64,000 nt of DNA from an uncultured Gammaproteobacteria bacterium. Lineage in GTDB: Bacteria > Patescibacteriota > Patescibacteriia > JAHIZJ01. This document shows positions 1-56,834 of this stretch, piece after piece; within the stretch, counting starts at the first letter, position 1; every line of letters starts with the position of its first letter. The notes beneath the pieces were generated by a model. The model saw only the letters and a list, made by a program, of their open reading frames with translations. It did not search any database and was not told the DNA's origin. The stretch is from the NCBI GenBank assembly GCA_964371245.1, contig CAYJKP010000001.1, forward strand, positions 443,042 to 507,041. The letters are read 5' to 3'. Position numbers and translations under genes: made by a program.

Positions 1-1143
1 GTCGTCTGGCTGAAGACGGTGTGCTTCTGGAAGGACCCGAAGACGCTTGAGCCCATCACGATGACCTTGGCGCTGGAATACCCGCCTGTCGACTACCAGG
101 GGAATCGATACTACCTGTATCAGTATCTCGCGTGCAACAACGCGGCAGGGAGTATCATCCCCATCGTCGACGAAGGCTCGACTGAGGTAACCGTCCAACC
201 GCCAGCTACGGAAGAGAAGAAACCGGAGCCGCCCACCACGACGGATCAAGCGCCGCCTCCTCGCGAGACGTCGCATGAATTCGTTCAGGGGGGCGTCTGG
301 TGGCTCGACTACCGGTATGCCCAGGGCGGGAAGGACCGGAAGGGCAACCTTGACCGGCAGCACTCGTTCCTGGGAGGACTGGAGTGGCTGCCACGGATTT
401 CCGGCTACGACGGCTGGGGTCGCCTGCGCGATCTCTCCACCGTTGTCCGGATTGAACAGGCGTCGCTGGACAAGAATCACGTGTCCGGCGAATACCGGCT
501 CGGCGGTCGGGGCTGGATCCTCGGCGACGAGGCCGGCTCCTGGCGTACGGGCTTTGAAGCCGGCGCCTGGTATCTGGCCAGCCAGCGTGAGTTCGTCAAC
601 TACCAGCAGATCTCGCCCTCGACCATTGAGGCGCGAGAAGACGCGAGGTATTTCGATGGCTACGGCGGCTATGGCCGTATCCTCGGGATCACGCCGAAGC
701 TGGGGTATTATGAGGGTATGTTCAAGCGAGGGACAAACCTCGATCGCGAGATCGCGGGGAGTTTCTCCATTGAACCTCACCCACTATATTTCCGGGCGTC
801 GTACGACGTCCAGTACCGCCGCGGACAGTCACGGCACTTCGACAACCAGACCCTGTCCTTCCCGGCCGACACCATGCAGGTGTTCGAGGGACGGATCGGA
901 TACAAGTTCAACCACTATGTCATTGTCTACGCATCGTATGACTCTTGGTCTTACGACAACCCGAGCTGGTCATTCGACTGGCGCGGCCCCGGGATCGGAA
1001 TTGAGTACCGGATCAACCGTTGGTGGCGTCTGAAGGGGCACTTCAAGTACCTGAATGACGCTACCGATAGAGATTTGGTCAACGGCAAGGTGTACCACAC
1101 GGACCGGCAGTGGGCGGGGATCGGCCTCGACCACAGCTGGTGA
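1..1143 (+). CDS. 5'-truncated high-GC CDS; outer-membrane beta-barrel-like protein. It has alternating hydrophobic/polar strands near the C-terminus and a terminal aromatic W
   Basis: The reading frame is open to window position 1. GC is about 62%. The C-terminus ...IGIEYRINRWW...GIGLDHSW ends in Trp, as in OMP beta-barrels. No family was recognised. Confidence 0.4.
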   Translation, partial: VVWLKTVCFWKDPKTLEPITMTLALEYPPVDYQGNRYYLYQYLACNNAAGSIIPIVDEGSTEVTVQPPATEEKKPEPPTTTDQAPPPRETSHEFVQGGVWWLDYRYAQGGKDRKGNLDRQHSFLGGLEWLPRISGYDGWGRLRDLSTVVRIEQASLDKNHVSGEYRLGGRGWILGDEAGSWRTGFEAGAWYLASQREFVNYQQISPSTIEAREDARYFDGYGGYGRILGITPKLGYYEGMFKRGTNLDREIAGSFSIEPHPLYFRASYDVQYRRGQSRHFDNQTLSFPADTMQVFEGRIGYKFNHYVIVYASYDSWSYDNPSWSFDWRGPGIGIEYRINRWWRLKGHFKYLNDATDRDLVNGKVYHTDRQWAGIGLDHSW

Positions 1144-1160
1144 GCAAGGAGGAACCGAAG

Positions 1161-2042
1161 ATGCGCAGGTGTGTGTTGATGGCACTGCTGGTCCTGGTGG
1201 CCTTTGCGCCGGGATGCAGCAGGGACAAGTGGACGATGACCGCGCCCGGGCTTGCCGAGCCGGAGCAGACAACGCTCGGCTTTTCCGTGACGTGCGCGGA
1301 GGTCGAGGACGGCTGGCCGGTGTTCATCAGCGGGCCGGTCGTGCCTGGATACGAACAGGATCAGAACATCAGAGTGCCGTTTGGCACCTATGCCGACGGC
1401 CACGTCGAGGGGGACTACCTCTGGTGGTCCTGGGGAAACGAGAAGCGAGTCCCCGTCTGGTTCTGGGCCCAGAACCCGGCAGACAGCCGCTACTTCCGGA
1501 TGGTCGACATCTCGGTCGGCGGCACTCCGATTCTGGGGTCAGCGGGTTCCAACGAGTGGGAGACCTGTCGTTCCTTCTCGGTCTACCTCGAGAACGGGGC
1601 GATCGTAGCGTCTCCGGACGGGCCTGATTCCCTGATCAATGCGCAGGTCTGGTACACCGGTACCGGTCTGCCTGACGGGAGGAACTGGCCAGCCGATCCT
1701 AACCAGCCGGTTGAATGGCTGGGGACATGGACCGGCTTCCGCGATCGTGCCCATGCGATGGAGTTCGTCAGCGGGCGATGGACCACCGAGAACGAGAACG
1801 TGATGGTCAAGAAGGGATCGAAGGGCTTCCTGAGGCTTCAGAAGCTCACTGGCGAAGAACTCCGGGCCGGTGTCTACTTCGGTCCGGAAGGCGACTTCGA
1901 TCGGGCGACGCTCCTGAAGTGCATCCATGACCTCGGTGGCGGCTACTGCGCCTTCGAGTACGCGATCACCGGCGCCGGGGGATTCGAAAACCCCAGGGAC
2001 GGCGATGAGCGGTTGTACGGCGTCCATATCGGGGGGCATTAG
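1161..2042 (+). CDS. high-GC lipoprotein (signal peptide plus lipobox LVAFAPGC)
   Basis: AAGGAGG sits 8 nt upstream of the ATG at 1161. The N-terminus is MRRCVLMALLVLVAFAPGCS. The function is unknown. Confidence 0.55.
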   Translation: MRRCVLMALLVLVAFAPGCSRDKWTMTAPGLAEPEQTTLGFSVTCAEVEDGWPVFISGPVVPGYEQDQNIRVPFGTYADGHVEGDYLWWSWGNEKRVPVWFWAQNPADSRYFRMVDISVGGTPILGSAGSNEWETCRSFSVYLENGAIVASPDGPDSLINAQVWYTGTGLPDGRNWPADPNQPVEWLGTWTGFRDRAHAMEFVSGRWTTENENVMVKKGSKGFLRLQKLTGEELRAGVYFGPEGDFDRATLLKCIHDLGGGYCAFEYAITGAGGFENPRDGDERLYGVHIGGH

Positions 2043-2109
2043 TAACAGCCCCCACGATCTGGTCTCGATGTTGCGTTCCAAAGGCATACCAACCCACGGA
2101 GGTAGTGAG

Positions 2110-2670
2110 ATGAAGCGGTTCATGGTTCTGATGGTGCTTCTGGTTGCGATGGTCGCCCTGACCCTGCCCGCGATGGCGCAGGTGAGGGATAGCAAGGTGG
2201 CGCCGCCGCCGGCTGACAGCGCGAAGGCGACGGTCACCCCGGCTCCCGCGGCTCCGGCGCGTCCGACGCTCTCCGACCGCAACCCGGTCGACGGCTGGCT
2301 CGACGCGAACGGCAACTGGCATCTGCGGATCTACGTCAATCTGCCCAAGGCCATCGAGTGGTCCGGACAGACGCCGGTGCCGGGACCGTTTACGGTCGTG
2401 CTCGGCGGCCTGCTCTGTGTGGAACAGGATCCGACAGTCACGGGAGTCAACGGCAGTACGGCGGTCGAATTCGTCATTCCGGCGAATGAGTGCAAGTGCC
2501 AGGAGGAAGGCTGCTTCCTCGCGGCACGCCCGGCTGACGACGGCATCACGGTCTGGCCCTGGACCTGGAATCACCCGAGTCGGGCCAAGAACGACAAGGG
2601 CCAGCAGATCGGCGGTTACCGTCTGATCATGCCGGCCGACGGTATCCTGACCTGGTCGGGCAAGCAGTAA
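2110..2670 (+). CDS. high-GC secreted protein of unknown function
   Basis: GGAGG RBS precedes the start. The signal peptide MKRFMVLMVLLVAMVALTLPAMAQV is followed by a proline/alanine-rich linker. Confidence 0.5.
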   Translation: MKRFMVLMVLLVAMVALTLPAMAQVRDSKVAPPPADSAKATVTPAPAAPARPTLSDRNPVDGWLDANGNWHLRIYVNLPKAIEWSGQTPVPGPFTVVLGGLLCVEQDPTVTGVNGSTAVEFVIPANECKCQEEGCFLAARPADDGITVWPWTWNHPSRAKNDKGQQIGGYRLIMPADGILTWSGKQ

Positions 2671-4199: not shown

Positions 4200-5373
4200 G
4201 TTTAATAAAAATTGATTCGTATTTTTGAATAGCTATGTTCCAATCGTACTGCTCGGCAAAGATCCGGGCTTGGCGTTCAACCTTCTGACGCAGATCGGAC
4301 GACTCAAAGAGTCGGTGTATTTTTTCATACATTTCGTGGGAAGAATTTGCCACGAAGATATTCTCGCCGTCAGAGATCGGTAATCCAGCGAGGCTTGTCG
4401 GAGTAGCGACGATTGCCTTGCCGCACGCCATCGCCTCGACAATTTTGTTTTTAAAGCCGGCACCGAGCGTAATTGCAGACACATACACAGCCGAGCGCCA
4501 TAAATAACAGCGAATATCTTTCACATAATCGGTAACGATAATCTGTGGATCGAGCGACTGAAGCTCGAAAATATCGAGGGTCGGATTTTTCCCGACGATA
4601 TACCATTGAACCCGCGGGTGCGCCTGTTTAAGCGACGGCCACACATTTTTATTGAAATCGAGGACGGCCCGGACATTCGGCGGAAAATTCATGGTTCCGG
4701 TGAAGACAATTGTTTCGTTATCAGGCTGCGATTCAGAGGGACGGAAGAATTTTAGATCCACGCCATTGGCAATAACGGATACTTTGGCCGTTGGAGCTAA
4801 TTGCTGGATTGTTTTGCGGTCGACATCTGAGACAACAACGGTTTCCGACAAAGCAGGCAGGACATGTTGTTCAAGAGCTATTGCTTTTTCACGTTCGAAG
4901 CGATAATGAATCTTTCTTAACGGATTTTTCGTGATGGCCCGAAATTGTTCATACCATGAGGAATATGCGTCGATGTACCCAAAGACAACGGGCGTGCGCG
5001 AGATATGTTTCAGGTAGGCGGAAATGAACGGGGAGTGGAAGTAGACGAGATCGACATCAGGGCGACCGTCAAGCGTTTCGACTTCCCAGATCATTTCGGG
5101 CGTGTACAGCTGGTATTGGAACCAGGCCATTGAACGGGATTTCGGCGAGAGATAGTAGAATGGGAGCAGGCGTTTCGGACGGTCAAAAAGCTTCACGCTG
5201 ATGCCGAGGTCGGTGAAACGCTTGATATTCGGAAGATCGTGTTTGTCGCCAAAACAAAGCAGTCGGATCTGATGCCGTTGAGACAAACGCGTCAATAAGT
5301 GATAGGCGATTAAGGCCTGGCCGTCCTTTTCGGGCGGATAGGGGAGGCTATTGGTGACAAATGCTAAACGCAT
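4174..5373 (-). CDS. glycosyltransferase family 1 (GT4-type)
   Basis: The C-terminal motif GAGFKNKIVEAMACGKAIVAT is the EX7E-like GT4 signature. Confidence 0.75.
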   Translation of the reverse strand: MRLAFVTNSLPYPPEKDGQALIAYHLLTRLSQRHQIRLLCFGDKHDLPNIKRFTDLGISVKLFDRPKRLLPFYYLSPKSRSMAWFQYQLYTPEMIWEVETLDGRPDVDLVYFHSPFISAYLKHISRTPVVFGYIDAYSSWYEQFRAITKNPLRKIHYRFEREKAIALEQHVLPALSETVVVSDVDRKTIQQLAPTAKVSVIANGVDLKFFRPSESQPDNETIVFTGTMNFPPNVRAVLDFNKNVWPSLKQAHPRVQWYIVGKNPTLDIFELQSLDPQIIVTDYVKDIRCYLWRSAVYVSAITLGAGFKNKIVEAMACGKAIVATPTSLAGLPISDGENIFVANSSHEMYEKIHRLFESSDLRQKVERQARIFAEQYDWNIAIQKYESIFIKHARPNAEV

Positions 5374-5466
5374 GTATTTATCTTAGCGTAAAATTAGGAA
5401 TCTGAATATGGTACACAATCTTGGCGCTATTGTCAATCGTAGGGCGTTAGGCGGGAACTAGTGTAA

Positions 5467-5495
5467 TTGTCAGCGTCACCGGTGGCGTGTATACT
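5467..5495 (+). promoter_or_regulatory. sigma70-like promoter TTGTCA-N17-TATACT
   Basis: Near-consensus hexamers with a 17-nt spacer. The ATG at 5520 lies about 25 nt downstream. Confidence 0.4.
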
Positions 5496-5519
5496 GAGAA
5501 GCAGTTAGAAAATCATCAA

Positions 5520-6146
5520 ATGTCGCTAGCCTACAAAATATCAGAATACAATAGAAACCGGAAGTGGCGCGCCTTTATCAAAACGTTCACGCTTTCGCCG
5601 AACGTAAAAATACTGGACGTCGGTTTCACTGAACGCGAGTATAGCGAAACCGATAATTATTTGGAAAAACATTATCCGTATCAGCATAATATTACCGCGC
5701 TCGGCGTTGACCAGGCGGAGGAATTCAGGCATCGCTATCCGGCCGTGAACGTCGTAACGTATCGTGGCGGAAAATTTCCTTTTAACGACCATCAGTTCGA
5801 TATTTGTTGGTCAAATGCGGTGATCGAACACGTCGGTAATTCACAGAAACAGCTAGCGTTTTTACAAGAAATACGCCGCGTGGCGAGACATGGCTATCTG
5901 ACCACGCCCAATAAAATGTTTCCGATCGAGGTGCATACGCGCCTGCCGTTGCTGCACTATTTGCCAAAACCGTGGTTCGACGCGATTATCAAAAAAACAA
6001 ATCGAAAATGGGCGGCCGGCGATTATATGCATCTGTTGTCAGAACGCGCGTTGCGAAAATTATTGCAGACGGCGGGGTATACAAACTATACGATAATAAA
6101 AAATCGATTGGCCTTCATTCCGCTGGACTTCGTGATTGCGTTCTAA
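5520..6146 (+). CDS. class I SAM-dependent methyltransferase (type-11-like)
   Basis: Motif I is ILDVGF and the post-I acidic residue is present. The ORF track begins at a GTG at 5487; the ATG at 5520 was preferred. Confidence 0.6.
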   Translation: MSLAYKISEYNRNRKWRAFIKTFTLSPNVKILDVGFTEREYSETDNYLEKHYPYQHNITALGVDQAEEFRHRYPAVNVVTYRGGKFPFNDHQFDICWSNAVIEHVGNSQKQLAFLQEIRRVARHGYLTTPNKMFPIEVHTRLPLLHYLPKPWFDAIIKKTNRKWAAGDYMHLLSERALRKLLQTAGYTNYTIIKNRLAFIPLDFVIAF

Positions 6147-6161
6147 TTAGTATAAAATGGT

Positions 6162-6185
6162 AAGGGGGCTAAGCCCTTTTTTTGA
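6162..6185 (+). terminator. rho-independent terminator (AAGGGGGCTAAGCCCTT followed by T8)
   Basis: A GC stem followed by a poly-T run lies directly after the methyltransferase stop codon. Confidence 0.55.
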
Positions 6186-6241
6186 AAAAAATGCCTGGTC
6201 ACGGATGTGGCCAGGCGAAGGCAGAAGGTTCGAACAGGGGA

Positions 6242-7603
6242 TCAGTTGCCGATCGGTGGGGCGGGTGGAACTCGTGGCTTGCCACCACCTCCGACACAAT
6301 CCGGCGCGTTGTTGTCGACGACGCAGAGAAGCTGAAAGAGCTTCGTCATGTCGTCGTACCAGTCACCGGACTGTTGGCTGAAGTCGTAGCTGCAGCGAGC
6401 CGCGAATTCGGCCGGGACACCACTCTCAACGCACAGGTTGACGGCGTCCCAGTAGGAGTCGTCGACGACGTAGGCGCCGTAATCACGCAGCGCTTGCGCG
6501 ATCTTCATTGCCGGGGAGGTTTTCAGCCCCAGCGAATCGAGGTTCACGTTGGACGGAATGGCGAGCAGGCAGCCCATGCGTACGGCCGGCTTGGCGATAC
6601 CATCCTTGTCGTACTCCCGCTGGTAGTAATGATCGGCACGCGCGGCCGGCCAGCGGAAGCCTTTCTGGGTTTTCGATCCGTATCGGGCCATCCAGATGTC
6701 GATCTTCAGCGCGTGTCGGATCGGTTCCGGACCGAAGAGCTCGCCCCGGCGGATAGAACCACCGAGTGTGGCTAAGCTAGAACCGCCATGGCCGCCGCCG
6801 ATCCCATCTCCATACAGGTCGACGGTGGGCGCTTTCCAGCCGGCATAGGCGGGGCCAGTAGGATCGCAGCGGGCGGTCGGGTTTGCCTGGTAGACGGTGT
6901 TTCCGTCAGCCAAGACAAAGGCCGAGGTTGTGTTGCCGTCGTTCGCCGGGATCAAGGCACCGTCCGGCACGATGATCTTGGCCAGTTCATTGCTGCCGCT
7001 GCACTCTCCTGGCCACTTCCCGTTTCCGTAGAGCGGTCGCTCGCGTCCTTCGAAGAACAGGTACTCCTTGTCGGGTGCGATCCAGAGACAGGGCCTCAGA
7101 CCGGCCGGGACATAGTTTGCCTCGGATCCGATCGGCGCGTTCCAGATGCTGCCGGTCGAAAACGGCCACAGGTACTTGTCCCTGGTCGGAGCATGATCGC
7201 CGCCGCGACCTTGGCACTTCACCGTTTTCAGCTCGCTCGCCCCAAAAGTGATCTTGGCCTTGTGCTGACCGCGTTTCAAGGGCGAGTACGTAACGGTGAG
7301 CAGCCGAGACTCGAACGGCTGGAGAGTGATAACCGACGGATTGACCGAGAAGTGTTTGCTCGACGACTTCACCGAGCTCTCAATCGGGCTGGTCGTCAGG
7401 TTGTAGAGCCTGAGGCTCAGTGAGTTCGAGCGACCAGGCGAAACCGAGCCAAAGTCCAGCTTGAGAGGAGTGACTGGCTGGGTCGACACGATCGCGGGCT
7501 GCTGAACAGTCCGCTGACACGTTGTCGGCGCGCAGCAGGCTCCAGCAAGCACGAGAAAAGCGGCTACGAGTACCCAGATTCCTCTCATTGGATTTACCCC
7601 CAT
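6242..7603 (-). CDS. high-GC (about 60%) secreted protein of unknown function; probable true start at the second ATG, 7588
   Basis: The N-terminus MRGIWVLVAAFLVLAGACC is a signal peptide. GC and codon usage differ sharply from both flanks. Confidence 0.55.
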   Translation of the reverse strand: MGVNPMRGIWVLVAAFLVLAGACCAPTTCQRTVQQPAIVSTQPVTPLKLDFGSVSPGRSNSLSLRLYNLTTSPIESSVKSSSKHFSVNPSVITLQPFESRLLTVTYSPLKRGQHKAKITFGASELKTVKCQGRGGDHAPTRDKYLWPFSTGSIWNAPIGSEANYVPAGLRPCLWIAPDKEYLFFEGRERPLYGNGKWPGECSGSNELAKIIVPDGALIPANDGNTTSAFVLADGNTVYQANPTARCDPTGPAYAGWKAPTVDLYGDGIGGGHGGSSLATLGGSIRRGELFGPEPIRHALKIDIWMARYGSKTQKGFRWPAARADHYYQREYDKDGIAKPAVRMGCLLAIPSNVNLDSLGLKTSPAMKIAQALRDYGAYVVDDSYWDAVNLCVESGVPAEFAARCSYDFSQQSGDWYDDMTKLFQLLCVVDNNAPDCVGGGGKPRVPPAPPIGN

Positions 7604-7644
7604 GGTAAAGGTTATCGAAGAAGCTATCAGCTACCGAACGTATA

Positions 7645-7672
7645 AATATACACTAAAACGATTTTTTGTCAA
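7645..7672 (-). promoter_or_regulatory. minus-strand promoter TTGACA-N16-TATATT driving the high-GC gene
   Basis: Reverse complement of 7645-7672. The AT-rich host-like promoter is divergent from the GT4 promoter. Confidence 0.45.
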
Positions 7673-7691
7673 CCCGCGCTGGTCGCAGGTA

Positions 7692-7720
7692 TTGACAAGA
7701 AGTATAATAATTGCTATACT
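7692..7720 (+). promoter_or_regulatory. promoter TTGACA-N17-TATACT
   Basis: Consensus -35 with a 17-nt spacer, about 30 nt upstream of the ATG at 7751. Confidence 0.5.
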
Positions 7721-7750
7721 GCGCTGTTTTACTAATGGTATGATATCAAT

Positions 7751-8968
7751 ATGAAAATATTGCTGATCAACAAGTTTTACTACCTGAAGGGTGGAGCCGA
7801 ACGGCACTTCTTTGAGCTGAAAGAAATGCTCGAACGACATGGCCATGAAGTTGTCGTTTTTTCTATGCAGGACGAGAAAAATATCCCGTCACCCTATTCG
7901 AAGTATTTCGTTTCAGAAGTTAACTTTGAAAACGTGGCCCTGAATTGGCAGGGGTTACGTACGGCCGGCCGGATGCTGTATTCATTCGAGGCGCGCCGGA
8001 AAATCAGTCAGTTGCTGGATGCTGAAAAACCGGATCTCGTGCACGTGCACAATATTTATCACCAGATTTCGCCTTCGATATTGTCGGCGATAAAAAAGCG
8101 CAATATCCCGATTGTTCAGACGCTCCATGATTATAAATTGCTGTCGCCGAATTATGCCTTGTTTTGCCACGGTAAGATTTGCGAGTGTGCACTTGGCGGT
8201 AAATACTATACGTGCATTCGACACCGATGCATTAAAAACTCATATATCGCCTCAGCTCTATCGGCGCTTGAAATGTACTTTCATAAAACTCTGCAGCTGT
8301 ATGAAAAAAATATCGATGTCTTTATTTGTCCGAGTATATTCATGGCGAGACAGCTGAAGCGCTGGGGGATTCGTGCCAAGAGAATTGAGCAAATATACAA
8401 TTTTGTTTCCGAGACAGCGCCAACGGAAAATGTTATCGGCGACTACTTCGTATACGTCGGGCGACTGTCTGAAGAAAAGGGACTGCCGCTATTGCTCGAG
8501 GCATTTGCGGGTTTGCCGTCAAAATTGAAAATTGTCGGCACCGGGCCACTAGAAAAAGAGCTGAGGCAGAGAGTTCGGACTGAAGGAATGAAAAATGTTG
8601 AGTTTCTTGGTTATCGGGAGGGCGAGGAATTATCAGATATAGTGAGCAAATCCTTGGCGGTTGTCGTGCCGTCGCAATGGTATGAAAATTGCCCGCTGGT
8701 AATATTAGAAGCCTATCAGCATGGCAAGCCGGTTATTGCAACAGAAATCGGAGGCATTCCCGAGCTTGTTCGCCAGGGCCAAACGGGGTATACTTTCAAG
8801 CTCGGCTCGCCAAACGATTTGAGAAAGAAAATTCAACTCATGATAGAAAATACCAGCCGGGTCGATGAAATGGGACAGAACGCGAAGGCGTTTTCGGATC
8901 AGTTCCGTACCGAAAAATATTATCAGAAACTCATTACCATATATGAATCGCTGGTTGGCAAAAAATAG
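7751..8968 (+). CDS. glycosyltransferase family 1 (GT4-type)
   Basis: Carries PSQWYENCPLVILEAYQHGKPVIATEIGGIPE, the GT4 EX7E region. Confidence 0.75.
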   Translation: MKILLINKFYYLKGGAERHFFELKEMLERHGHEVVVFSMQDEKNIPSPYSKYFVSEVNFENVALNWQGLRTAGRMLYSFEARRKISQLLDAEKPDLVHVHNIYHQISPSILSAIKKRNIPIVQTLHDYKLLSPNYALFCHGKICECALGGKYYTCIRHRCIKNSYIASALSALEMYFHKTLQLYEKNIDVFICPSIFMARQLKRWGIRAKRIEQIYNFVSETAPTENVIGDYFVYVGRLSEEKGLPLLLEAFAGLPSKLKIVGTGPLEKELRQRVRTEGMKNVEFLGYREGEELSDIVSKSLAVVVPSQWYENCPLVILEAYQHGKPVIATEIGGIPELVRQGQTGYTFKLGSPNDLRKKIQLMIENTSRVDEMGQNAKAFSDQFRTEKYYQKLITIYESLVGKK

Positions 8969-11000
8969 ACTCGGCTATCATTGCGTGATCGCGCTCATAG
9001 CGGTAACGGCGTTTTTATTTGGTTTGCCAAAAAGCGTTGGCGCGCGGACGCTGGATAATACCTACCCGAGGCTGGCCAACATATTCTATACAACAAAGTT
9101 GACAATGGGCGAAGCGCAGAGCCTGGCGCGTTGGGACGCGATCATCCTAAGCATGGAGAACCAATACACAAACCCTGAGGCGATTCAACTGATGCGCCTG
9201 ATAAACCCTGATATCATCATATTAGCCTATGTGTCATCGCAAGAATTGCCAGACAGCATGTTTGCAATAACTGACAAGAACCATCCTGACTACAAACTGA
9301 CGCATGGTGTCTCAAGTAAATGGTTTTTGCGCGATGCCCAGGGCGGACAAGTAGTTTTTTGGCCGGGCACAAGAATGATGAATGTGACTAATTCGGCGGC
9401 GCGCGTTAACGGATTGCGCTGGAACACCTATCTGCCCGAGTTCGTGCATGAAAACGTCATGTCGACCGACTTATGGGATGGCATCTACTATGACAATATG
9501 TGGAATGATATTTCTTGGCTAAATAACGGCAATCTTGATCTCAACCGCGATGGCCAGAAAGAGAGCGCTGCTGCGCTCGACCGGGCCTGGCGCGATGGAA
9601 TGAGCGCCCTGCTTCGCTACTCGCGGCAATTAGAAGGCGACGAAAAAATAATTGTTGGGGGAGGTGGCGGTCAATATTTTGATTCGATCAACGGGCGGCT
9701 TTTCGAAGGATTTCCGACAAATCTCGATGGCGGCTGGGGCGGATCAATGGAAAAATATCTAGACGCTCAGGATCGAGCCCAGGCGCCGTCGGTAATAATT
9801 ATCAATAGCAGCACAACCACGGGCACGTCGGACGATTATCGACAGTTACGCTATTCCTTGGCGAGTGTATTGCTTGGAAACGGTTTTGCGAGCTTTGACT
9901 TCGGGATGTATCGGCACGCGGATCTCTGGTGGTATGACGAATATGATGTTTCGCTCGGACGGCCGAATGGCTCAGCCTACAATGTTCAAAATGCCTCCGC
10001 TCCGATTTCATCGGCGGGCGTCTGGCGCCGCGATTTCACGAACGGGGTAGTCTTGATAAATTCTACCAATAAGAGCCAGCGGGTGAATTTAGGCGCCGGT
10101 TATGAAAAAATAAAAGGCAAGCAAGCGCCGACGATCAACACTGGTGAAATCGTCAGTTCGGTAACGCTGCCGGCGCGCGACGGACTCATCGTCTACAAGC
10201 GCCAGTTTGAAATAGCCGAAGGTCAGTACACGAACGGGTGGCTGGCCGAAGCCTTCTCCGCCACCGGTCGGAAAGTCCGCCAAGGCTTTTTTACCTATAC
10301 GACCGAATATGCCGGCGGCGTGAATATTATTAAGACTGATTTAACAAACAACGGTACAATTGAGACAGTTGTTGCCTGGAATAATAAAGTTCAAGTTTAC
10401 AACCAGGCCGGCTTTTTGATTCGTGAGTTTTATCCCTACGGAGCTTCGTACAATCGCGGCATCAATCTGGCCGTTGGCGACTTGGATGGCGATAAGAAAA
10501 AGGAGATCGTAACCGGCACTGGTCCCGGCGGCGGTCCGCATGTCAGGATATTTAACGCCCGCGGCGGGTTAGTAAATGTTGGCTTTTTTGCCTACGACAA
10601 AAACTTCCGCGGCGGTGTCCATGTAGCCGTCGGCGATATGAATGGTGACGGCAAGGATGAGATAATCACCGGCGCAGGCTATGGCGGCGGTCCGCATGTC
10701 AGGGTCTTCAGCCGTTTTGGCCGTCCGTTGTCTGGCTTTTTTGCCTACGACAAAAACTTCCGCGGCGGAGTATCGGTCGCCTCGGATGATTTGAATAATG
10801 ATGGAAAAGATGAAATTATTACTGGGGCTGGCCCGGGCGGCGGCCCACATGTCCGAATATTTAATCAGTTTGGCAAAGCGGTGATGCTTGGTTTCTTTGC
10901 TTATAAAGAGAGCTGGCGGTCAGGAATCACGGTGACAACCGCTGATATCAATCGAGACAATAAGCCTGAAATAATAGTCTCGAGCCAAACGCTATATTAA
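8943..11000 (+). CDS. membrane-anchored surface protein. The N-terminal region is a putative glycoside-hydrolase-like domain. The C-terminus holds about 3.5 FG-GAP/VCBS-like 52-aa repeats
   Basis: Repeats read VGDxxGDGKDEIxTGxGxGGGPHVRxF...FFAYDKNFRGG. A TM anchor LGYHCVIALIAVTAFLF is present. An alternative upstream ATG at 8865 would overlap the preceding gene by 103 nt. Confidence 0.55.
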   Translation: MNRWLAKNRLGYHCVIALIAVTAFLFGLPKSVGARTLDNTYPRLANIFYTTKLTMGEAQSLARWDAIILSMENQYTNPEAIQLMRLINPDIIILAYVSSQELPDSMFAITDKNHPDYKLTHGVSSKWFLRDAQGGQVVFWPGTRMMNVTNSAARVNGLRWNTYLPEFVHENVMSTDLWDGIYYDNMWNDISWLNNGNLDLNRDGQKESAAALDRAWRDGMSALLRYSRQLEGDEKIIVGGGGGQYFDSINGRLFEGFPTNLDGGWGGSMEKYLDAQDRAQAPSVIIINSSTTTGTSDDYRQLRYSLASVLLGNGFASFDFGMYRHADLWWYDEYDVSLGRPNGSAYNVQNASAPISSAGVWRRDFTNGVVLINSTNKSQRVNLGAGYEKIKGKQAPTINTGEIVSSVTLPARDGLIVYKRQFEIAEGQYTNGWLAEAFSATGRKVRQGFFTYTTEYAGGVNIIKTDLTNNGTIETVVAWNNKVQVYNQAGFLIREFYPYGASYNRGINLAVGDLDGDKKKEIVTGTGPGGGPHVRIFNARGGLVNVGFFAYDKNFRGGVHVAVGDMNGDGKDEIITGAGYGGGPHVRVFSRFGRPLSGFFAYDKNFRGGVSVASDDLNNDGKDEIITGAGPGGGPHVRIFNQFGKAVMLGFFAYKESWRSGITVTTADINRDNKPEIIVSSQTLY
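10330..10985 (+). repeat. intragenic tandem DNA repeat with a period of about 156-162 nt, in about 3.5 copies
   Basis: A 34-nt block ggcttttttgcctacgacaaaaacttccgcggcgg is perfectly duplicated at 10581 and 10743. ggcggcggtccgcatgtcagg is also repeated. Confidence 0.7.
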
Positions 11001-24857: not shown

Positions 24858-25370
24858 TTATTCAGAAAATCTTGAAACGGTAAATCTTTGGAGAGTATAT
24901 TTGTCCTTTGTTACATCGATGCCGGCTTTCGAAGCGGCAATGGAAACTTGTTCATCAACCGTGTTAACCCCCTCTATATCCGGCAACAAAACACCCCGGC
25001 GCTGATGCGATTGGACGATGACTCCATATTTGCGCGGATTCAGAGATTCACGTGTCGTTGGCTCAGGGGTATTCAAACGATCAACTTTTATGTCAGTCTC
25101 AGATAGTTCGGAAAGCTCCATTGGTTTAAAGCGCGGATCGCGAGTGGCCGCGGCAATGGCGTTAGCGATAATTTCTTCAGCCACGCAATTTGTTGTTGGT
25201 TCAAGCGTGCCAATACAGCCGCGCAATTCACCGTTTTTATGGAGCGATACGAATACGGCCGCTCTTTCGCGACGCAGCTCCATTGGTGCGCCCTTTGGAG
25301 ATTCAAGTATCGCGCCTGACTTCAAAAATGATTGTATGGCGTGACGGGCGAGAGAAACGTAAAAGTTCAT
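24858..25370 (-). CDS. AMMECR1-domain protein (AmmeMemoRadiSam system protein A)
   Basis: The AMMECR1 signature LRGCIGTLEP is present. It overlaps the upstream gene by 4 nt. Confidence 0.8.
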   Translation of the reverse strand: MNFYVSLARHAIQSFLKSGAILESPKGAPMELRRERAAVFVSLHKNGELRGCIGTLEPTTNCVAEEIIANAIAAATRDPRFKPMELSELSETDIKVDRLNTPEPTTRESLNPRKYGVIVQSHQRRGVLLPDIEGVNTVDEQVSIAASKAGIDVTKDKYTLQRFTVSRFSE

Positions 25371-26164
25371 GAGATTGGAAAGTGAATAACCGCATAACCG
25401 ACGCCAAACGGACCTTCGTATGAAAGAATGTTCGGTTGAGCTGGTTCAGATTCAAGCGCGCCCATCAGGATGCACAGCGATCGGTACCCGCATTCGCCGG
25501 CGGCATCAATAAAGTCCGGATCAAGCGACGCAATTGCCTCATACTTGCGTCGTCCAATAAGCTCAATGATTTTTTGGTCAAATTCTTTTCCGTGCGGAGA
25601 GAATCCGGCTGGCGCACCTTTGAAAAGACGGTGCGATAAATCACCTGACGCGATGAGGGCAATTCGTTTTGTTGATTTCTGACAATATTCTCGCAAACAG
25701 CGACCAAATTCAAGATGTTGTTCGATTGAGCAAAATGAATAACTTAGCGGTATAAGTTGCGCCGGCTTTGAACCACTTTCAAGAAACGATAATGGTACGA
25801 GGATACCATGATCAAGCTCTGGCTCTTTATAGAGATTAACGGGGATGTTCTTATCTGCTACCGAAGCATATAATTCAGCGCATTCGTTTGGCGAACCAGC
25901 ATATTCCTGGCGAATTTCATCATGGCCGAATGGAGCAAAAGAACCGTGAAATTTATCCGCTGAATTTATCAGAAAATAATCCGGCCAGAGTTGGCTGTGC
26001 GGAGAAATTATTATCGTGATTTCTGGTTTGGCGTTGCGATACAAAACAGCCAAGCGTGACATCGCCTGGCGTGTTTTCGCAACCAGCGTGAGATCGTTTG
26101 GCTGACCGATGCCGGCGACAATAATCGGCGGATGCGGAACAAAACCAGCAAAGACGAGTGCCAT
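25367..26164 (-). CDS. Memo1/LigB-like protein (AmmeMemoRadiSam system protein B)
   Basis: Class III extradiol-dioxygenase-like fold markers are present (SPHSQ, HGILVP, SGDLSHRL). Confidence 0.7.
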   Translation of the reverse strand: MALVFAGFVPHPPIIVAGIGQPNDLTLVAKTRQAMSRLAVLYRNAKPEITIIISPHSQLWPDYFLINSADKFHGSFAPFGHDEIRQEYAGSPNECAELYASVADKNIPVNLYKEPELDHGILVPLSFLESGSKPAQLIPLSYSFCSIEQHLEFGRCLREYCQKSTKRIALIASGDLSHRLFKGAPAGFSPHGKEFDQKIIELIGRRKYEAIASLDPDFIDAAGECGYRSLCILMGALESEPAQPNILSYEGPFGVGYAVIHFPIS

Positions 26165-26168
26165 GAGT

Positions 26169-27590
26169 CTAGGGGTTTAAGGCCCGACTACTCGGATGGA
26201 TGCGCACGGCGAAATCAGTGGTGGTCACAATGTTATCCCACTTATAGCCAAGCTGATTGAATACGTCAGCCGAGGCAATGCGTTTTCTTTTGCCGTTTGA
26301 AACTACAAAAACCGCGTGCGATTCGGGCGAAGTGATCAGCGTGCCGTCTTTGAATCGGAGCGGCTCGCCCGGCTGATACTGCTGGATTTCAGAATCGTCA
26401 ACCCTGATCAAGTTCGGTTTGGGGAAATTAGACAGGAGTATTTCTCTTGAAACAATGCCGTGGCGCGTGCCGTTTTTAACATAGGATACCGCGCCAGTTT
26501 TTTTTGATTGCAGCAGGACGCCAGTTGGATAGACGCTGTTCATGGAGATGGAATAGCCCGTCGGATAGCTTTTCAGATCTCCGGATTCGACTGGAATAAC
26601 TTCTTCCGGATTATATCCAATTTTTCGGAAAACCGATTCTGATTCGATGAGATGTTTCTCATTAAACGCGATTAAATACGTTTTTTCATCCGGTCCTTGC
26701 AGCAGACTATATTCTGGGAACTTGATTGGCGGCCCGTCTTCATAGGCATCAATATCGTTCTGAGAGACCGTCAGGATGTTCCTTGGGTTATAGTTGGCCA
26801 GGAATGCAGATTTGGACCAAAAGGCCCGCTTACGCCCGTTTTTAATCAAATAGACGGCTGGCTGACCGGCTACCTGGAGCAAGCTGCCGTCCGGATAGAC
26901 TTTTCCGAACCAGTCCGTCCATTTCTTCCAGACCAGCGAACTGCCACCCCAGCGCAGATCGCCACCGCCGTATTTTCCGACCCAGGGCGTATACGTATAA
27001 AGCGCTGCGGTAGCGGCGTTCTCTGGCGTAACGGCGATTCCATCCAATGTGTTTTTCGTGATAAACGGACCCCAGCCGCTGATCGTTCGACCGAGTTTTC
27101 GTATCCGCGTGATATACCCTTTGGGATTTCCATAGCTGTCTAGCTCCGCATTGAGAAATATTTTTGCCGCCCACATCACTTGAATAGAAAAACCTTTATA
27201 TGTACTTGAACAGCCGGTGCCGTCCGGGCAGCCGAAGCCGGCCGCGTAATCAATTTGGTTTTGAGTCGGAGTTGAATCAGAAATTAATCCTTGCTCGACT
27301 TCAAGGCGCACGAGCAGATACTTCGGATTAATTTTATACATCTGGGCAACATCGTAAATAATTTGAGCGGCCGACTTATTTACCCCAAAGACGGAAGTGG
27401 CATAGGTGTCGAGAACGCCAGTTTTTGACTCGAGGAACTTTTGAATCCTGTCTTTTGACATTGACTGGTAATTCAAGAGGTCCTCATCGGACAAGAGGTT
27501 ATTTGGATGACAAACGGCAGCCAGTAACGGAGCTGGCATAATAAAGTTTAGGATGACGAGAGAAACAATGAATCGTTTTATGAAGGTCAT
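26169..27590 (-). CDS. secreted protein with four ~55-aa tandem repeats, inserted within the AmmeMemoRadiSam operon
   Basis: An N-terminal signal peptide is present. Repeats follow the pattern xYLIxNGxKRxIxSxxVFxxxGYxxxxIxxV. It is separated from both flanking genes by 1-4 nt. Confidence 0.5.
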   Translation of the reverse strand: MTFIKRFIVSLVILNFIMPAPLLAAVCHPNNLLSDEDLLNYQSMSKDRIQKFLESKTGVLDTYATSVFGVNKSAAQIIYDVAQMYKINPKYLLVRLEVEQGLISDSTPTQNQIDYAAGFGCPDGTGCSSTYKGFSIQVMWAAKIFLNAELDSYGNPKGYITRIRKLGRTISGWGPFITKNTLDGIAVTPENAATAALYTYTPWVGKYGGGDLRWGGSSLVWKKWTDWFGKVYPDGSLLQVAGQPAVYLIKNGRKRAFWSKSAFLANYNPRNILTVSQNDIDAYEDGPPIKFPEYSLLQGPDEKTYLIAFNEKHLIESESVFRKIGYNPEEVIPVESGDLKSYPTGYSISMNSVYPTGVLLQSKKTGAVSYVKNGTRHGIVSREILLSNFPKPNLIRVDDSEIQQYQPGEPLRFKDGTLITSPESHAVFVVSNGKRKRIASADVFNQLGYKWDNIVTTTDFAVRIHPSSRALNP

Positions 27591-28613
27591 TTATTGTTGA
27601 ATAATATTTATGTTCATCTTACATTTTGGGCATAGGCCGTTTTTGTCATGTCGGGTAACGCGGTAGCCGTCGCGCTGGATGGCGATTTCGCCGCACTTCG
27701 GGCAATAGGTGTGTTCACTTTTATGGCCCGGGATATTTCCGATATAGACATAGCGCAGTCCGTTCTTCCGTCCGACGTCAATTGCGTGCTCAAGCGTCTC
27801 AACCGGAGTCTCGACGCCGTCAGTCAGGCGATATGAGATATCGGGATCAAAACGCGACAGATGCCAGGGCGTTTCCGGTCCAGCTTTTTTCGCAAGGAAT
27901 TTTGAAATACCGTCAAATGTACTCTGACTGTCGCTTAAGCCCGGTATGACCAGTGTCGTTACTTCTACCCAGCAACCGATCTTTTTGAAACGGACAATGT
28001 TATCGAGAACCGGCTGGAGATGACAACCGCAATTTTTCAAATAGGTTTCATCGTCAAAAAACTTCAGATCGATGTTTATCGCGTCGAGATACGGCTGAAT
28101 CAGTTCAACCGTTTGCTCGCTCATGTAGCCATTTGAAACCCAGATATTTTTCAAGCCGGCCGAGCGAGCCAATTTCATGGTCTCAAGCGCGTATTCGAGA
28201 AAGATGGTCGGCTCAGTATAGGTGTAGGCGATGCTTTGGCAATTGCGTGCAACCGCATGGTCAACGATCGCTTCGGGGGAGAGGTCGTGCCCAGAAATGG
28301 TTTTGCCGCCCTTGGAACCTTGCGAAATATCCCAATTTTGGCAATTATCGCAACGGAGATTACAGCCTAACGTTGCGATGGAAAGTCCAGTAGATCCTGG
28401 AAAAAAATGAAAAAATGGCTTTTTCTCAATTGGATCGACAGCCTCAGCGATGGCCTTACGGTAGTTTAGCGCAAAAAGAGTGCCGCCAATGTTTTCTCTG
28501 ACCGCACAAATGCCGCGACTACCCGTGTTTATTCGACAGTTGTGCGCGCAAACATGACATCGGACACTATTATTTTCTAGCTTTGAATACAAAAGTGCTT
28601 CTTTCATTCGCAT
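27591..28613 (-). CDS. radical SAM enzyme (AmmeMemoRadiSam system radical SAM protein, PFL-activase-like)
   Basis: CNLRCDNC matches CX3CX2C, and an additional N-terminal Cys cluster CHVCAHNC is present. Confidence 0.8.
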   Translation of the reverse strand: MRMKEALLYSKLENNSVRCHVCAHNCRINTGSRGICAVRENIGGTLFALNYRKAIAEAVDPIEKKPFFHFFPGSTGLSIATLGCNLRCDNCQNWDISQGSKGGKTISGHDLSPEAIVDHAVARNCQSIAYTYTEPTIFLEYALETMKLARSAGLKNIWVSNGYMSEQTVELIQPYLDAINIDLKFFDDETYLKNCGCHLQPVLDNIVRFKKIGCWVEVTTLVIPGLSDSQSTFDGISKFLAKKAGPETPWHLSRFDPDISYRLTDGVETPVETLEHAIDVGRKNGLRYVYIGNIPGHKSEHTYCPKCGEIAIQRDGYRVTRHDKNGLCPKCKMNINIIQQ

Positions 28614-46742: not shown

Positions 46743-47795
46743 CTATTCCTCGTGAGTAGACAACGAGAGAATGCCTTTGAGGTTATCAAGATCCTCGAGC
46801 ACGATGCCGGTGCCCCGAACAAGGCAGGTCAAGGGATCATCGGCAATATGAACGGGTATTTGTGTTTCGTGTTGGATGACACGGTCGAGCCCCCGCAGCA
46901 GCGCGCCGCCACCGGTTAATACCAAGCCGCGCTCGAAGATATCGGCCACCAATTCCGGCGGCGTTGATTCGATAGTGTCTTTGATATTTTCGATTATCAT
47001 TCGAATTGAGCGCTGGATCGCTTCCTGAACATGATAGCTATTGATTGTAACCTCGCGCGGCAAACCGGACAACAGATCGCGACCGCGCATTTTTGTTTCG
47101 AGCGGTTCGGTGATATCGCCAACCATGGCAACCTTTATTTTTACATTTTCGGCCGTTTGTTCGCCCAAGAGCAAATTAAAGTTTTCGCGCGCATACTGAA
47201 TGATATTTTGGTCCAATTCGTCGCCAGCGATTCTGAGCGATCGCCAGGTGATAACACCACCTAACGAAATAACGGCTATTTCCGTCGTGCCCCCGCCGAT
47301 ATCGACGATCATGTTTCCGGAAGCGTCTTGAATCGGTAACCGCGCCCCTATCGCCGCCGCCATCGGTTCTTCAATCAGAAAAACTTGACGCGCCCCGGCG
47401 TTCAGTGTGGCATCTTCAACGGCTTTCAATTCCACTTCGGTTATCCCTTGGGGCACCCCGATAACAATTCTCGGTCGCGGCACCACCGTGTAGGTTTCAC
47501 GATGTACTTTTTCAATAAAATGTCTGAGCATCCGTTCGGTAATTTCAAAGTCGGAAATTACTCCATGTATCAGCGCTTTGCTGGCTACAATATGAGCGGG
47601 CGTCTTCCCCACCATCCGGCGCGCTTCTTCACCGACCGCGACAATTTGATCAGTGCGCGTGTTAATCGCGACAATTGATGGCTCATTAATCACAATCCCC
47701 TTGTCTTTTATGTAGACAAGCGTATTCGAGGTACCCAAATCAATTCCCATGTCTTTTGAGAAGCGTCCAAAAAAGCGATTGAAGATATTGATCAT
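46743..47795 (-). CDS. mreB: actin-like rod shape protein MreB (with an N-terminal amphipathic extension)
   Basis: Carries GIDLGTSNT and is 350 aa. Confidence 0.9.
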   Translation of the reverse strand: MINIFNRFFGRFSKDMGIDLGTSNTLVYIKDKGIVINEPSIVAINTRTDQIVAVGEEARRMVGKTPAHIVASKALIHGVISDFEITERMLRHFIEKVHRETYTVVPRPRIVIGVPQGITEVELKAVEDATLNAGARQVFLIEEPMAAAIGARLPIQDASGNMIVDIGGGTTEIAVISLGGVITWRSLRIAGDELDQNIIQYARENFNLLLGEQTAENVKIKVAMVGDITEPLETKMRGRDLLSGLPREVTINSYHVQEAIQRSIRMIIENIKDTIESTPPELVADIFERGLVLTGGGALLRGLDRVIQHETQIPVHIADDPLTCLVRGTGIVLEDLDNLKGILSLSTHEE

Positions 47796-51819: not shown

Positions 51820-53016
51820 TCATGATGTCCCGGTTATAACCGCAAGGGTTTTCTTGGCACATTCATCCCAGCGAAAATGATGTATCCTGGAGAAGCCCCG
51901 CTGTTGCAGGTTATGGCGGTAGTCCTGATCAGTCGCCAGTCGCTTTAAAATAGCGGCAAGTTCGTCAGGGCGTTCGGTCTCAAATAGTTCCGCGGCATCG
52001 CCAGCTACTTCCGGTATTGAGGCAGCACGGCTGGCTACGACTGGTGACCCACACGCCATTGCCTCAAGAAGCGGCAAGCCAAATCCTTCATAAAATGAAG
52101 GAAAAACAAAGGCAGTCGCCTTATTTAACAAGGCAACGAGCGACTCCGGCTGGAGATAGCCAGGCATGATGATGGCCGAGGCAAGATTGCTTTTCAGGAT
52201 TTCATTTCGTACTTCATCAAAACCATATCCGGGCTGACCGGCTAAAATCATTACGTGCGGTAGTTTCGTCTCATTTTTAAAGATTGAGAACGCCTTGATT
52301 AATCCGGCCGTATTCTTCTTCTTCTCCAGCCGACCGACATACAGAAAATATGGCGCCGTAATTTTCAAACGATCCAACTCGTTCTGAATTATTGACGTGT
52401 CAGTGATCGGATGATAAATGTTCTGGTCGACGCCGTGATAGATTACCTGGATGCGTTTTTCGGGTATGCCGTAGACATCGATAACTTCATTCTTCGTAAA
52501 ACTCGACGGGACAATAATCTGGGTAGCTTTTGTAATCGCGGTTCGCATCGCCCAACGATGATAATCGAGCTCGCTTGAACCGTAGCGACCTCTCGTAAAT
52601 ATCCTGGTACCAGCCGATAATATTTTCTTCCCCAGGCGCCGCCCACCGATTGCTTCCTTTGAATAGAGCCCATGAAGCCGTTCAAAACCGATGTCATGGA
52701 CGGTTAAAACGGTTCTTTTGCTTTTAATGAGAGGGAGCGTGTGAGCCGGCACGAAGAGCACGTCAACGGGTTTTACGGCCAGCCGGAGTGAGAGACGAAT
52801 TTGAGTCCAAAGAAATTTTGGCGGCCAGCGTAATACTTGCGAATGAAAATTTGTTGGCAGATTTTGATATTCCGAGCGCAATTTTTCCTTGGTATACAAA
52901 AAATACTGATCGTTCGGGTCAGCAATTTTGCAAAATTCTTTAATCAGCCAATACGAATACCATTCGGTTCCGGTTTTGTTTTCGACATTGGCGCGCGAGG
53001 CGTCAATACCAATCTT
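51820..53016 (-). CDS. glycosyltransferase family 1 (GT4-type)
   Basis: Carries FVFPSFYEGFGLPLLEAMACGSPVVAS. The ATG at 53016 (MKIGID...) was preferred over the ORF-track start at 53076. Confidence 0.75.
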   Translation of the reverse strand, partial: KIGIDASRANVENKTGTEWYSYWLIKEFCKIADPNDQYFLYTKEKLRSEYQNLPTNFHSQVLRWPPKFLWTQIRLSLRLAVKPVDVLFVPAHTLPLIKSKRTVLTVHDIGFERLHGLYSKEAIGGRRLGKKILSAGTRIFTRGRYGSSELDYHRWAMRTAITKATQIIVPSSFTKNEVIDVYGIPEKRIQVIYHGVDQNIYHPITDTSIIQNELDRLKITAPYFLYVGRLEKKKNTAGLIKAFSIFKNETKLPHVMILAGQPGYGFDEVRNEILKSNLASAIIMPGYLQPESLVALLNKATAFVFPSFYEGFGLPLLEAMACGSPVVASRAASIPEVAGDAAELFETERPDELAAILKRLATDQDYRHNLQQRGFSRIHHFRWDECAKKTLAVITGTS

Positions 53017-53038
53017 CATAAGGTACGCGCTAAAGGAA

Positions 53039-54046: not shown

Positions 54047-54049
54047 AGA

Positions 54050-56833: not shown

Positions 56834-56834
56834 G

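Follow-up and report, generated by a model that had tools for sequence, protein, structure and literature searches.

GC-rich genes for exported proteins share a codon bias in a surface-glycan locus of Patescibacteria

Atypical GC (guanine plus cytosine) content is routinely taken as evidence of horizontal transfer, and the locus described here raises the question of whether it can be read in that way. The stretch of DNA analysed ("the window") comprises 64,000 nucleotides of contig CAYJKP010000001.1 (positions 443,042 to 507,041, forward strand) from an uncultured bacterium of the Patescibacteriota (GenBank assembly GCA_964371245.1). It includes a surface-glycan locus in which one GC-rich gene, hereafter the target gene, is predicted to encode an exported protein of two domains (Table 1). 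A first-pass annotation had interpreted this gene as horizontally acquired and domesticated under a host promoter. The promoter is native, with exchangeable cargo behind it, but the GC content is no sign of acquisition, as the target is GC-rich and keeps its synteny in seven genomes. Overall, we consider it fairly probable that the target is a long-standing and mainly vertically inherited gene of the glycan locus, with a maintained, class-specific GC bias and a glycan-acting product. Its 15-point GC excess (25 points at third codon positions) is conserved over saturated divergence, and an unrelated gene that replaces it in a relative is likewise GC-rich. In these genomes, methods that detect islands from composition would therefore misassign a functional class of genes.

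Composition and descent of the target gene

The target coding sequence has a GC content of 0.612 (0.586, 0.509 and 0.740 at the first, second and third codon positions, the last termed GC3), whereas its flanking genes have 0.455 and 0.454, the intergenic regions 0.474 and 0.367, and the whole window 0.471. These values agree with the first-pass description of a gene of about 60% GC with GC-rich third positions and flanks of 40–45% GC. That annotation had also proposed a comparison of codon usage with the rest of the contig; carried out within the window, it showed no uniform GC and placed the GC3 of the target 4.5 standard deviations above the other 53 genes (0.493 ± 0.054, maximum 0.597). About half of the GC excess arises from the make-up of the protein, in which Gly, Pro, Ala, Trp and Cys are frequent and Lys, Ile and Glu scarce. 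The amino acids of the target combined with host codon usage predict a GC content of 0.535 and a GC3 of 0.527, and the remainder, up to 0.612 and 0.74, is codon choice. The gene is not, as had been claimed, a single-gene island: three further genes with the same codon pattern (hC, hB and hA) form a second GC-rich block in the window, with GC of 0.60–0.65, GC3 of 0.78–0.80 and z above 5. This block is conserved and GC-rich in loci L006, L008, L010, L014 and L016.

The target is present in the same slot, and GC-rich, in seven genomes (loci L001, L006/L013, L008, L010, L015, L016 and L093). Loci L013, L015 and L016 were added by a GHL15-based scan of GTDB species genomes, which recovered 80 Patescibacteria loci from Falkow-, Kerfeld-, Buchanan-, Uhr- and Komeilibacteria and from unnamed lineages. 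Syntenic orthologues lie between the same GT4 genes, with protein identities of 88%, 60% and 46%, and the contig of the sister sequence P0008 carries the same divergent GT4b neighbour. Each orthologue exceeds its own neighbours in GC3 (0.74–0.77 versus about 0.52, 0.60 versus about 0.48, 0.62 versus about 0.40, 0.71 versus about 0.52, and 0.68 versus 0.38–0.53). Between the window genome and L008 or L010, four-fold degenerate sites are 24–37% identical in host and GC-rich genes alike, and synonymous sites are by this measure saturated. Since a donor signature would not survive such synonymous turnover, the GC excess is, on these alignments, maintained and not the scar of a recent transfer.

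The target copies form one clade in a phylogeny of the C-terminal domain (C-domain), and the distances between copies correlate with those for GHL15 (r = 0.96) and GT4b (r = 0.93). Relative to the orthologue with 88% identity, the ratio of nonsynonymous to synonymous substitution rates (dN/dS) is 0.24 overall, 0.50 in the N-terminal part and 0.165 in the C-domain, which indicates constraint; neighbouring enzymes have values of 0.02–0.10. We did not observe an empty slot in the relatives: where the target is missing (L014 and L096), another gene of the same codon class fills the position.

A discrete codon class and the possible causes of its bias

The target and hA–hC have a codon pattern in common, in which NNC is used over NNT (Phe, Tyr, Asn, Ile and Asp), ATC is used for Ile, and NNG is used over NNA (AAG, CAG and GAG over the A-ending codons). 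Within the window, C-ending codons make up 0.69–0.76 of the pyrimidine-ending two-fold codons (NNY) in these four genes, versus 0.35 ± 0.065 in host genes (maximum 0.54), and G-ending codons make up 0.72–0.82 of the purine-ending ones (NNR), versus 0.35 ± 0.07 (maximum 0.50). ClpB, both MreB paralogues and the aminoacyl-tRNA synthetases group with the bulk of the window in codon usage. Compared with host genes of the same locus, the target is shifted by −0.05 to +0.56 logit at four-fold sites and by +1.1 to +1.5 at two-fold NNY/NNR sites (six of six genomes).

Host codon usage is itself context-dependent, with about 59% G/C-ending codons at four-fold sites and only about 35% at two-fold and Ile codons in the host genes of the window, and this complicates any single GC3 statistic for the genome. 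We rejected the simple reading of the small four-fold versus large two-fold offset as codon selection, given that host four-fold sites are already GC-rich. The codon-class argument survives because in L008, L010 and L016 the four-fold GC of the target (0.54–0.55) follows the host, whereas its fraction of two-fold codons ending in G or C (S) does not (0.62–0.68).

Replacement genes in the slot carry the same signature. The cargo of L014 has a two-fold offset of +0.31 and a four-fold offset of +0.06, and the unrelated small GHL15 cargo of L096 also shows the class codon usage. The two-fold S fraction of class genes is 0.69–0.89 in L096 and L097 and 0.62–0.85 in the target-bearing genomes, while the host background in the L096/L097 comparison ranges from 0.21 to 0.56. 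These values suggest that class genes are held at an absolute set point of roughly 0.6–0.9 S-ending codons (mostly 0.65–0.85), whatever the host background.

The class also avoids runs of A/T. We compared runs of at least four A/T with shuffles that preserve the protein sequence and the codon usage of each gene. Runs were depleted in class genes with z of −2.0 or below in 8 of 11 tests (the others gave −1.3, −0.4 and +0.1), whereas 14 tests on host genes gave z from −0.4 to +2.5. Runs of at least six A/T number 0 in the target and 27 in GT4b. Among 927 open reading frames (ORFs) from 72 loci, a two-fold offset of at least 0.25 selected 40. By a heuristic signal-peptide rule, and with orthologues included in the counts, 29 of these 40 look exported compared with 197 of the other 887 (odds ratio 9.2, p = 7e-11). 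Loci L018, L020, L025, L027, L050, L062 and L075 provide independent examples. That one class of genes should persistently avoid codons ending in A/T, as well as A/T runs, is unexpected in reduced genomes, and a literature search on GC islands of Patescibacteria and on the GC3 of secreted proteins found no report of the phenomenon.

These observations can be assembled into a proposed history of the gene. The target would have resided for a long time in a variable surface-glycan locus (Wzz, Wzy, GT4, GHL15) of one Patescibacteria subclade, passed on mainly by vertical descent. Its transcription would start from a conserved, near-consensus sigma-70 promoter and stop at its own terminator, and the product (signal peptide, Ig-like ASH/PapD domain and a domain of about 315 aa) would be exported, its C-domain binding and cleaving or remodelling a polysaccharide on the surface of its own cell or of a partner. 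The high GC would reflect amino acid composition for about half and, for the other half, a maintained synonymous bias towards C/G-ending two-fold and Ile codons that breaks A/T runs. This bias would mark a small, discrete class of exported-protein genes, comprising hA, hB, hC and the slot gene, whichever occupant is present. The long residence of the gene, the maintenance of the bias, the membership of the class, the exchange of cargo and the domain relationships follow from the comparisons reported here. As to the cause of the bias, we infer that selection against AT-rich stretches, at the mRNA or the DNA level, maintains it in the class genes. The agent might be mRNA stability, evasion of AU-directed nucleases or toxins, a need to avoid AT-directed DNA binding, or decoding. 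It is possible, for instance, that class transcripts escape AU-directed RNases, toxin-type mRNA interferases or AT-directed silencing and so persist during transcriptome shutdown. More tentatively still, a small set of genes for surface or exported proteins (the slot gene, whatever its occupant, with hA, hB and hC) might have a coding style of its own in this group of Patescibacteria, with S-ending two-fold codons, hardly any A/T runs and an absolute set point, independent of genome GC and kept by selection at the nucleic-acid level. If true, this would be a compositional code specific to a gene class, as distinct from horizontal transfer, from biased gene conversion and from ordinary codon bias linked to expression.

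Several points weigh against this interpretation. The agents named above are candidates only, and none of the known causes is a good fit. The offsets of hA–hC in L010 and L016 are alike at four-fold and two-fold sites, a pattern that a uniform force, for example biased gene conversion, would yield as well. Export alone does not define the class, as the exported GHL15+FG-GAP and DUF11 proteins have ordinary codons; moreover, signal peptides were called heuristically, and orthologues and a few antisense artefacts are among the 40 class ORFs. The A/T-run shuffles leave dinucleotide biases at codon junctions free. The window holds no ribosomal-protein, EF-Tu or GroEL genes, which leaves some probability to expression-linked codon selection. 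Finally, the catalytic function of the product is deduced indirectly: the C-domain matches nothing in Pfam or the PDB and no CAZy-type family, and the phage proteins are annotated non-experimentally.

Ordinary translational selection, under which the class would comprise the most highly expressed surface-protein genes and optimal codons would happen to end in C or G, fares best among the alternatives, although we still regard it as unlikely. A preference for NNC over NNU, as described by Sharp, is the classic signature of selected codon bias in highly expressed genes, and the class genes resemble it in their strong preference for C in Phe, Tyr, Asn and Ile and in the codon-class specificity of the bias. 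However, the same genes also prefer G in Lys, Gln and Glu, and their context-dependent depletion of A/T runs persists with the codon usage of each gene held fixed. The class is moreover discrete, with four members in the window and no gradient, and it leaves out the chaperone and cytoskeletal genes. The target promoter is among only five sites in the entire 64 kb that match at least 11 of 12 consensus positions, yet GT4b has an equally strong promoter and host-like codons, and hC, hB and hA, which follow the host-like Wzz, have no detected promoter of their own. In organisms that grow slowly and have small genomes, moreover, selected codon bias is usually slight.

We consider GC-biased gene conversion distinctly unlikely. 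It would make the variable locus a recombination hot spot in which changes from A/T to G/C are fixed in exchanged cassettes, and it is consistent with the fast evolution of the class genes and with the recombinational mosaicism between L008 and L014 (94% identical), which affects the slot as well as the 3′ part of Wzy, hA and hB. Wzy, however, lies inside the mosaic zone and is host-like. The GC-rich stretch coincides exactly with the coding sequence, ending at the start and stop codons, with AT-rich, host-like untranslated and control regions. The near-equal offsets over synonymous classes in hA–hC of L010 and L016 are what conversion would give, but the target shows a far smaller shift at four-fold than at two-fold sites, and the avoidance of A/T runs goes beyond codon usage. 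A GC3 effect of +0.25 to +0.35 would also be far larger than is known from reported bacterial cases of biased gene conversion.

Recent acquisition from a high-GC donor, still unameliorated and placed under a host promoter, is very improbable. The target shares with horizontally acquired islands of atypical GC a sharp, gene-sized and foreign-looking anomaly within a surface-polysaccharide locus that exchanges cassettes, and the cargo behind its promoter has been swapped in L014. Its C-domain family is patchy over phyla and occurs in only about 7 of about 85 related Patescibacteria loci, and this patchy, rare distribution makes an ultimately horizontal origin of the C-domain plausible. Unlike such islands, however, the anomaly is syntenic and conserved over saturated divergence, in monophyletic copies that co-diverge with host genes and whose four-fold, but not two-fold, sites follow the host. 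It is also present in clade-specific genes: a search among 5.8 billion proteins found only four relatives of the neighbouring GC-rich hC, all in this clade. The homologue search that the first-pass annotation had recommended for finding the donor lineage found no donor. Outside the candidate phyla radiation (CPR), identity reaches about 53% at best, which matches the depth of the CPR clade itself, and no high-GC lineage has a closer homologue. Homologues elsewhere have the composition of their own genomes (Nostoc, GC3 0.23 in a region of 38% GC; a Dehalococcoidia metagenome-assembled genome, GC3 0.86 in a region of 68% GC). No integrase or transposase was found among the neighbours of the target and no tRNA near the island (the tRNAs of the window are 56 kb away), and a search for flanking att-like repeats returned merely short chance repeats.

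An assembly chimera or binning artefact joining a high-GC fragment to a low-GC contig, for which only the sharp GC steps speak and which the first-pass annotation had also disfavoured, has practically no probability left, as positions 4500–9500, with both GC transitions, are 100% identical in five assemblies from different samples and assemblers (coverage 3.5x to 48x) and the same gene arrangement recurs in six further diverged genomes. The sole interruption among the five assemblies is a gap of about 50 bp in L005 at 8786–8834, within GT4b and far from the GC transitions. Fourteen contigs, drawn from several samples and ranging from short ones at 3.5–7.7x to one of 918 kb at 48x, encode an identical target protein with constant neighbours, and a relative from another project is collinear with the window in a single alignment (88.8% identity). 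As a side observation, the GT4b product of L005 (ERZ13692949) has 392 aa instead of 405 aa, and the gap (window 8785–8835) represents a strain-level indel.

The exported protein and its C-terminal domain

The first-pass annotation had described the product as having a signal peptide, and a signal-peptide-like N-terminus is indeed present. Translation probably starts at the second ATG (7588), giving a protein of 448 aa, as the GGGGGT at 7596–7601 aligns with the GGAGG of the orthologues. The predicted structure has a low-confidence N-terminal helix at residues 10–20. Relative to the lipobox pattern [LVI][ASTVI][GAS]C, the window copy (LAGAC/C) is non-canonical at −3, L015 has LSSC, and L010 and L016 have no Cys.

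The same annotation had recognised no family in the product, and here both domains could be placed. The N-terminal one matches PF15780 at 45.1 bits (gathering threshold 27; aa 47–122). In Foldseek searches it matches the PapD-like domains of MSP, VAP, HYDIN and CEP192 (probability 0.99–1.0, with an E-value for the whole model of about 3e-3), and there is a weak, sub-threshold NCBIfam match to choice-of-anchor D. The C-domain matches PHROG 17388 (E = 5.6e-18 with hmmscan; domain residues 10–314 against profile positions 195–480). Its predicted structure aligns with BFVD models at template-modelling (TM) scores of 0.64–0.73 (E = 1e-16 to 3e-19), among them a minor tail protein of a Gordonia phage (TM 0.73, E = 1.6e-18) and another phage protein, which carries parallel beta-helix repeats. 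No fold match to the C-domain alone was found in the PDB (best E 0.67, TM at most 0.23), the full model matched PDB entries through the Ig domain only, and a sequence-profile search of the PDB gave no match. A Pfam scan of 92 members of the C-domain family, at E up to 1, identified no consistent family.

By tblastn, the C-domain matches 63 Gordonia phage genomes, in one of which the protein is annotated as 'glycosylhydrolase'. At E-value cut-offs of 1e-3 and 1e-30 the cellular family comprises 3,319 and 1,116 clusters, respectively, and it is often multi-domain, with PA14, dockerin, SGNH and phage parallel beta-helix among the fusion partners. Homologues also occur as stand-alone secreted proteins of Cyanobacteria, Chloroflexota and Actinomycetota, and that of the Dehalococcoidia adjoins an exopolysaccharide (EPS) locus. 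Ten residues are invariant in cellular and phage copies (W154, N155, R285, E288, H297, D324, Y331, D381, D418 and N431), and two cysteines are invariant within the cellular family. The 'minor tail protein' domain of PHROG 17388 (Guillaume gp9, Stormageddon gp18) thus corresponds to the target C-domain over its full length, at about 29–36% identity. The phage proteins differ in being virion-type, 640–750 aa long and equipped with extra N- and C-terminal modules, whereas the target is a cellular protein with a signal peptide and an Ig domain. The function of the phage domain, which has no Pfam match, is itself putative, and a literature search on Gordonia minor-tail hydrolases found nothing relevant. 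Given that the target neighbours glycosyltransferase, Wzy and methyltransferase genes and no phage genes, it is, as far as sequence comparison goes, a cellular homologue of the PHROG 17388 domain and not a tail protein.

Taken together, the domain evidence, the shared residues, the fusion partners, the EPS neighbour and the replacement of the target by a GHL15 protein in the slot lead us to propose that the product is an exported enzyme or binding module acting on a surface glycan. Glycan-degrading enzymes are known from within exopolysaccharide and capsule loci, as in the arrangements of PslG, PelA, AlgL and BcsZ. The target resembles these in being exported and encoded among Wzy, Wzz and GT genes, in a slot that holds a GHL15 glycoside-hydrolase-like protein in a sister genome, and in belonging to a family fused to PA14, dockerin and SGNH; it has no sequence or fold relationship to them, and its activity is putative. 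The C-domain defines a large family (about 3,300 clusters at 50% identity), with no Pfam model or solved-structure match, whose members are found both in secreted proteins of several phyla and in the tail proteins of actinophages. We regard it as a good candidate for a glycan-active enzyme or a receptor-binding module of a new class.

Cassette exchange, control regions and neighbouring features

Over about 10 kb, loci L014 and L008 share 94.4% identity, which ends 42 bp before the start codon of the target. At that point, according to the blastn breakpoints, 1.3 kb in L014 take the place of 2.2 kb (the target and the methyltransferase), and 94% identity returns 41 bp 5′ of the next gene. The replacement encodes a lipoprotein-like GHL15-domain protein of 401 aa, only 31% identical to the resident GHL15, and the slot in L096 is filled by the same small-GHL15 type. 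Between L008 and L014, the 3′ part of Wzy and hA/hB are far more diverged (70–73% identity) than their flanks, which is reminiscent of serotype switching in O-antigen loci. By the slot swap and this diverged segment, the locus behaves like a variable surface-antigen locus. The second mosaic zone, 70–73% identical or unalignable between flanks of 94%, extends over L008:13755–16373 and L014:2822–5801.

The first-pass annotation had described two divergent promoters, TTGACA-N16-TATATT for the target and TTGACA-N17-TATACT for GT4b, and both are present exactly. In an alignment of L001, L006, L008 and L010, both −35 boxes, the −10 region of the target (GTGTATAT) and the −10 of GT4b are invariant; with L014, L015 and L016 added, the −35 boxes are still invariant and the −10 largely retained. 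The target promoter is identical in L014 although the downstream cargo differs. Because the boxes are conserved despite saturated synonymous divergence, the promoter is, on this alignment, native. The terminator hairpin of the target is retained in L001, L006 and L008, and L010 has a different hairpin. An Rfam scan of the region found no RNA element. A stretch of about 12–15 nt just 3′ of the −10 box (TATACGTTCGGT, window 7620–7645, minus strand) is conserved in L001, L006, L008 and L014. It is noteworthy in that it is kept even where the downstream cargo differs, and it could be an initial-transcribed or operator element.

Table 1. Features of the target gene and its surroundings, in window coordinates.
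Feature	Positions	Strand	Basis or remark
Target ORF, exported two-domain protein	6242..7603	−	ORF list; 453 aa as listed
Signal peptide MRGIWVLVAAFLVLAGAC, possible lipobox-like AGAC/C	7535..7588	−	Sequence reading; heuristic export call
Ig-like ASH/PapD/MSP-type domain, aa 47–124	7232..7465	−	Pfam PF15780, E = 1.2e-11
C-terminal domain of about 315 aa, putative glycan-active module	6245..7186	−	AF2 model, pLDDT (confidence score) 94.8; family without Pfam model
Second GC-rich block: hC (3′ part, 1–1143), hB (about 1179–2042), hA (about 2005–2670)	1..2670	+	Same codon class; exported; without Pfam family
Target promoter, sigma-70-type, TTGACA-N16-TATATT	7645..7672	−	11 of 12 consensus positions match
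Shine-Dalgarno-like GGGGGT, 7 nt 5′ of ATG 7588	7596..7601	−	Aligns with GGAGG/GGGAGG of orthologues
Intrinsic terminator of target, hairpin GCCUGG.CAC/GUG.CCAGGC then U-run	6184..6216	−	Folding energy (dG) −15.4 kcal/mol, z −2.6
Divergent GT4b promoter, TTGACA-N17-TATACT with TG	7692..7720	+	11 of 12 match; conserved
Methyltransferase MT208, convergent with target	5487..6146	+	Pfam Methyltransf_11
Terminator-like hairpin between convergent genes	6162..6178	both	Terminator scan

The glycan-assembly setting reported by the first-pass annotation was recovered with Pfam, which identified Wzy_C, three GT4, a methyltransferase, GHL15+FG-GAP and DUF11 among the neighbours. MT208 was lost along with the target in the cassette swap of L014 and is missing in L010 and L016. 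In L010, the relative with 46% identity, the locus adjoins genes for an AMP-phosphorylase-like protein (Glycos_transf_3) and the large subunit of a form II/III-type RuBisCO (L010:13016–15192), the nucleotide-salvage pair known from CPR bacteria.

The hC protein (L001:16461–18305; 614 aa) contains a LysM-like segment, its last residue is aromatic, and its C-terminus gives weak matches to outer-membrane beta-barrel and LptD profiles (E = 3.5e-4). Such matches are odd in a lineage usually held to lack an outer membrane. Further GC-rich islands, reaching 0.61 GC in a background of 0.385, occur in distant loci (L019:67–1839, L020:4094–4789, L023:116–772 and L025:3307–4758). They encode Cys/Asp-rich repeat proteins with motifs like CxGxDNDCDGxxDE, and motifs resembling this one occur in high-GC bacteria.

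Elsewhere in the window, genes for AMMECR1, a LigB/Memo-like protein, an unannotated ORF of 473 aa and a radical-SAM protein form one co-directional run (24858–28613, minus strand), and this AMMECR1/MEMO/radical-SAM run represents a conserved association. The two MreB paralogues are encoded at 46743–47795 and 53039–54046 (minus strand), with MreC and PBP2 nearby. A second glycan cluster, within 51820–60245 and 45–54 kb from the first, contains GT4, DUF4012, three GT2 and a second Wzy_C.

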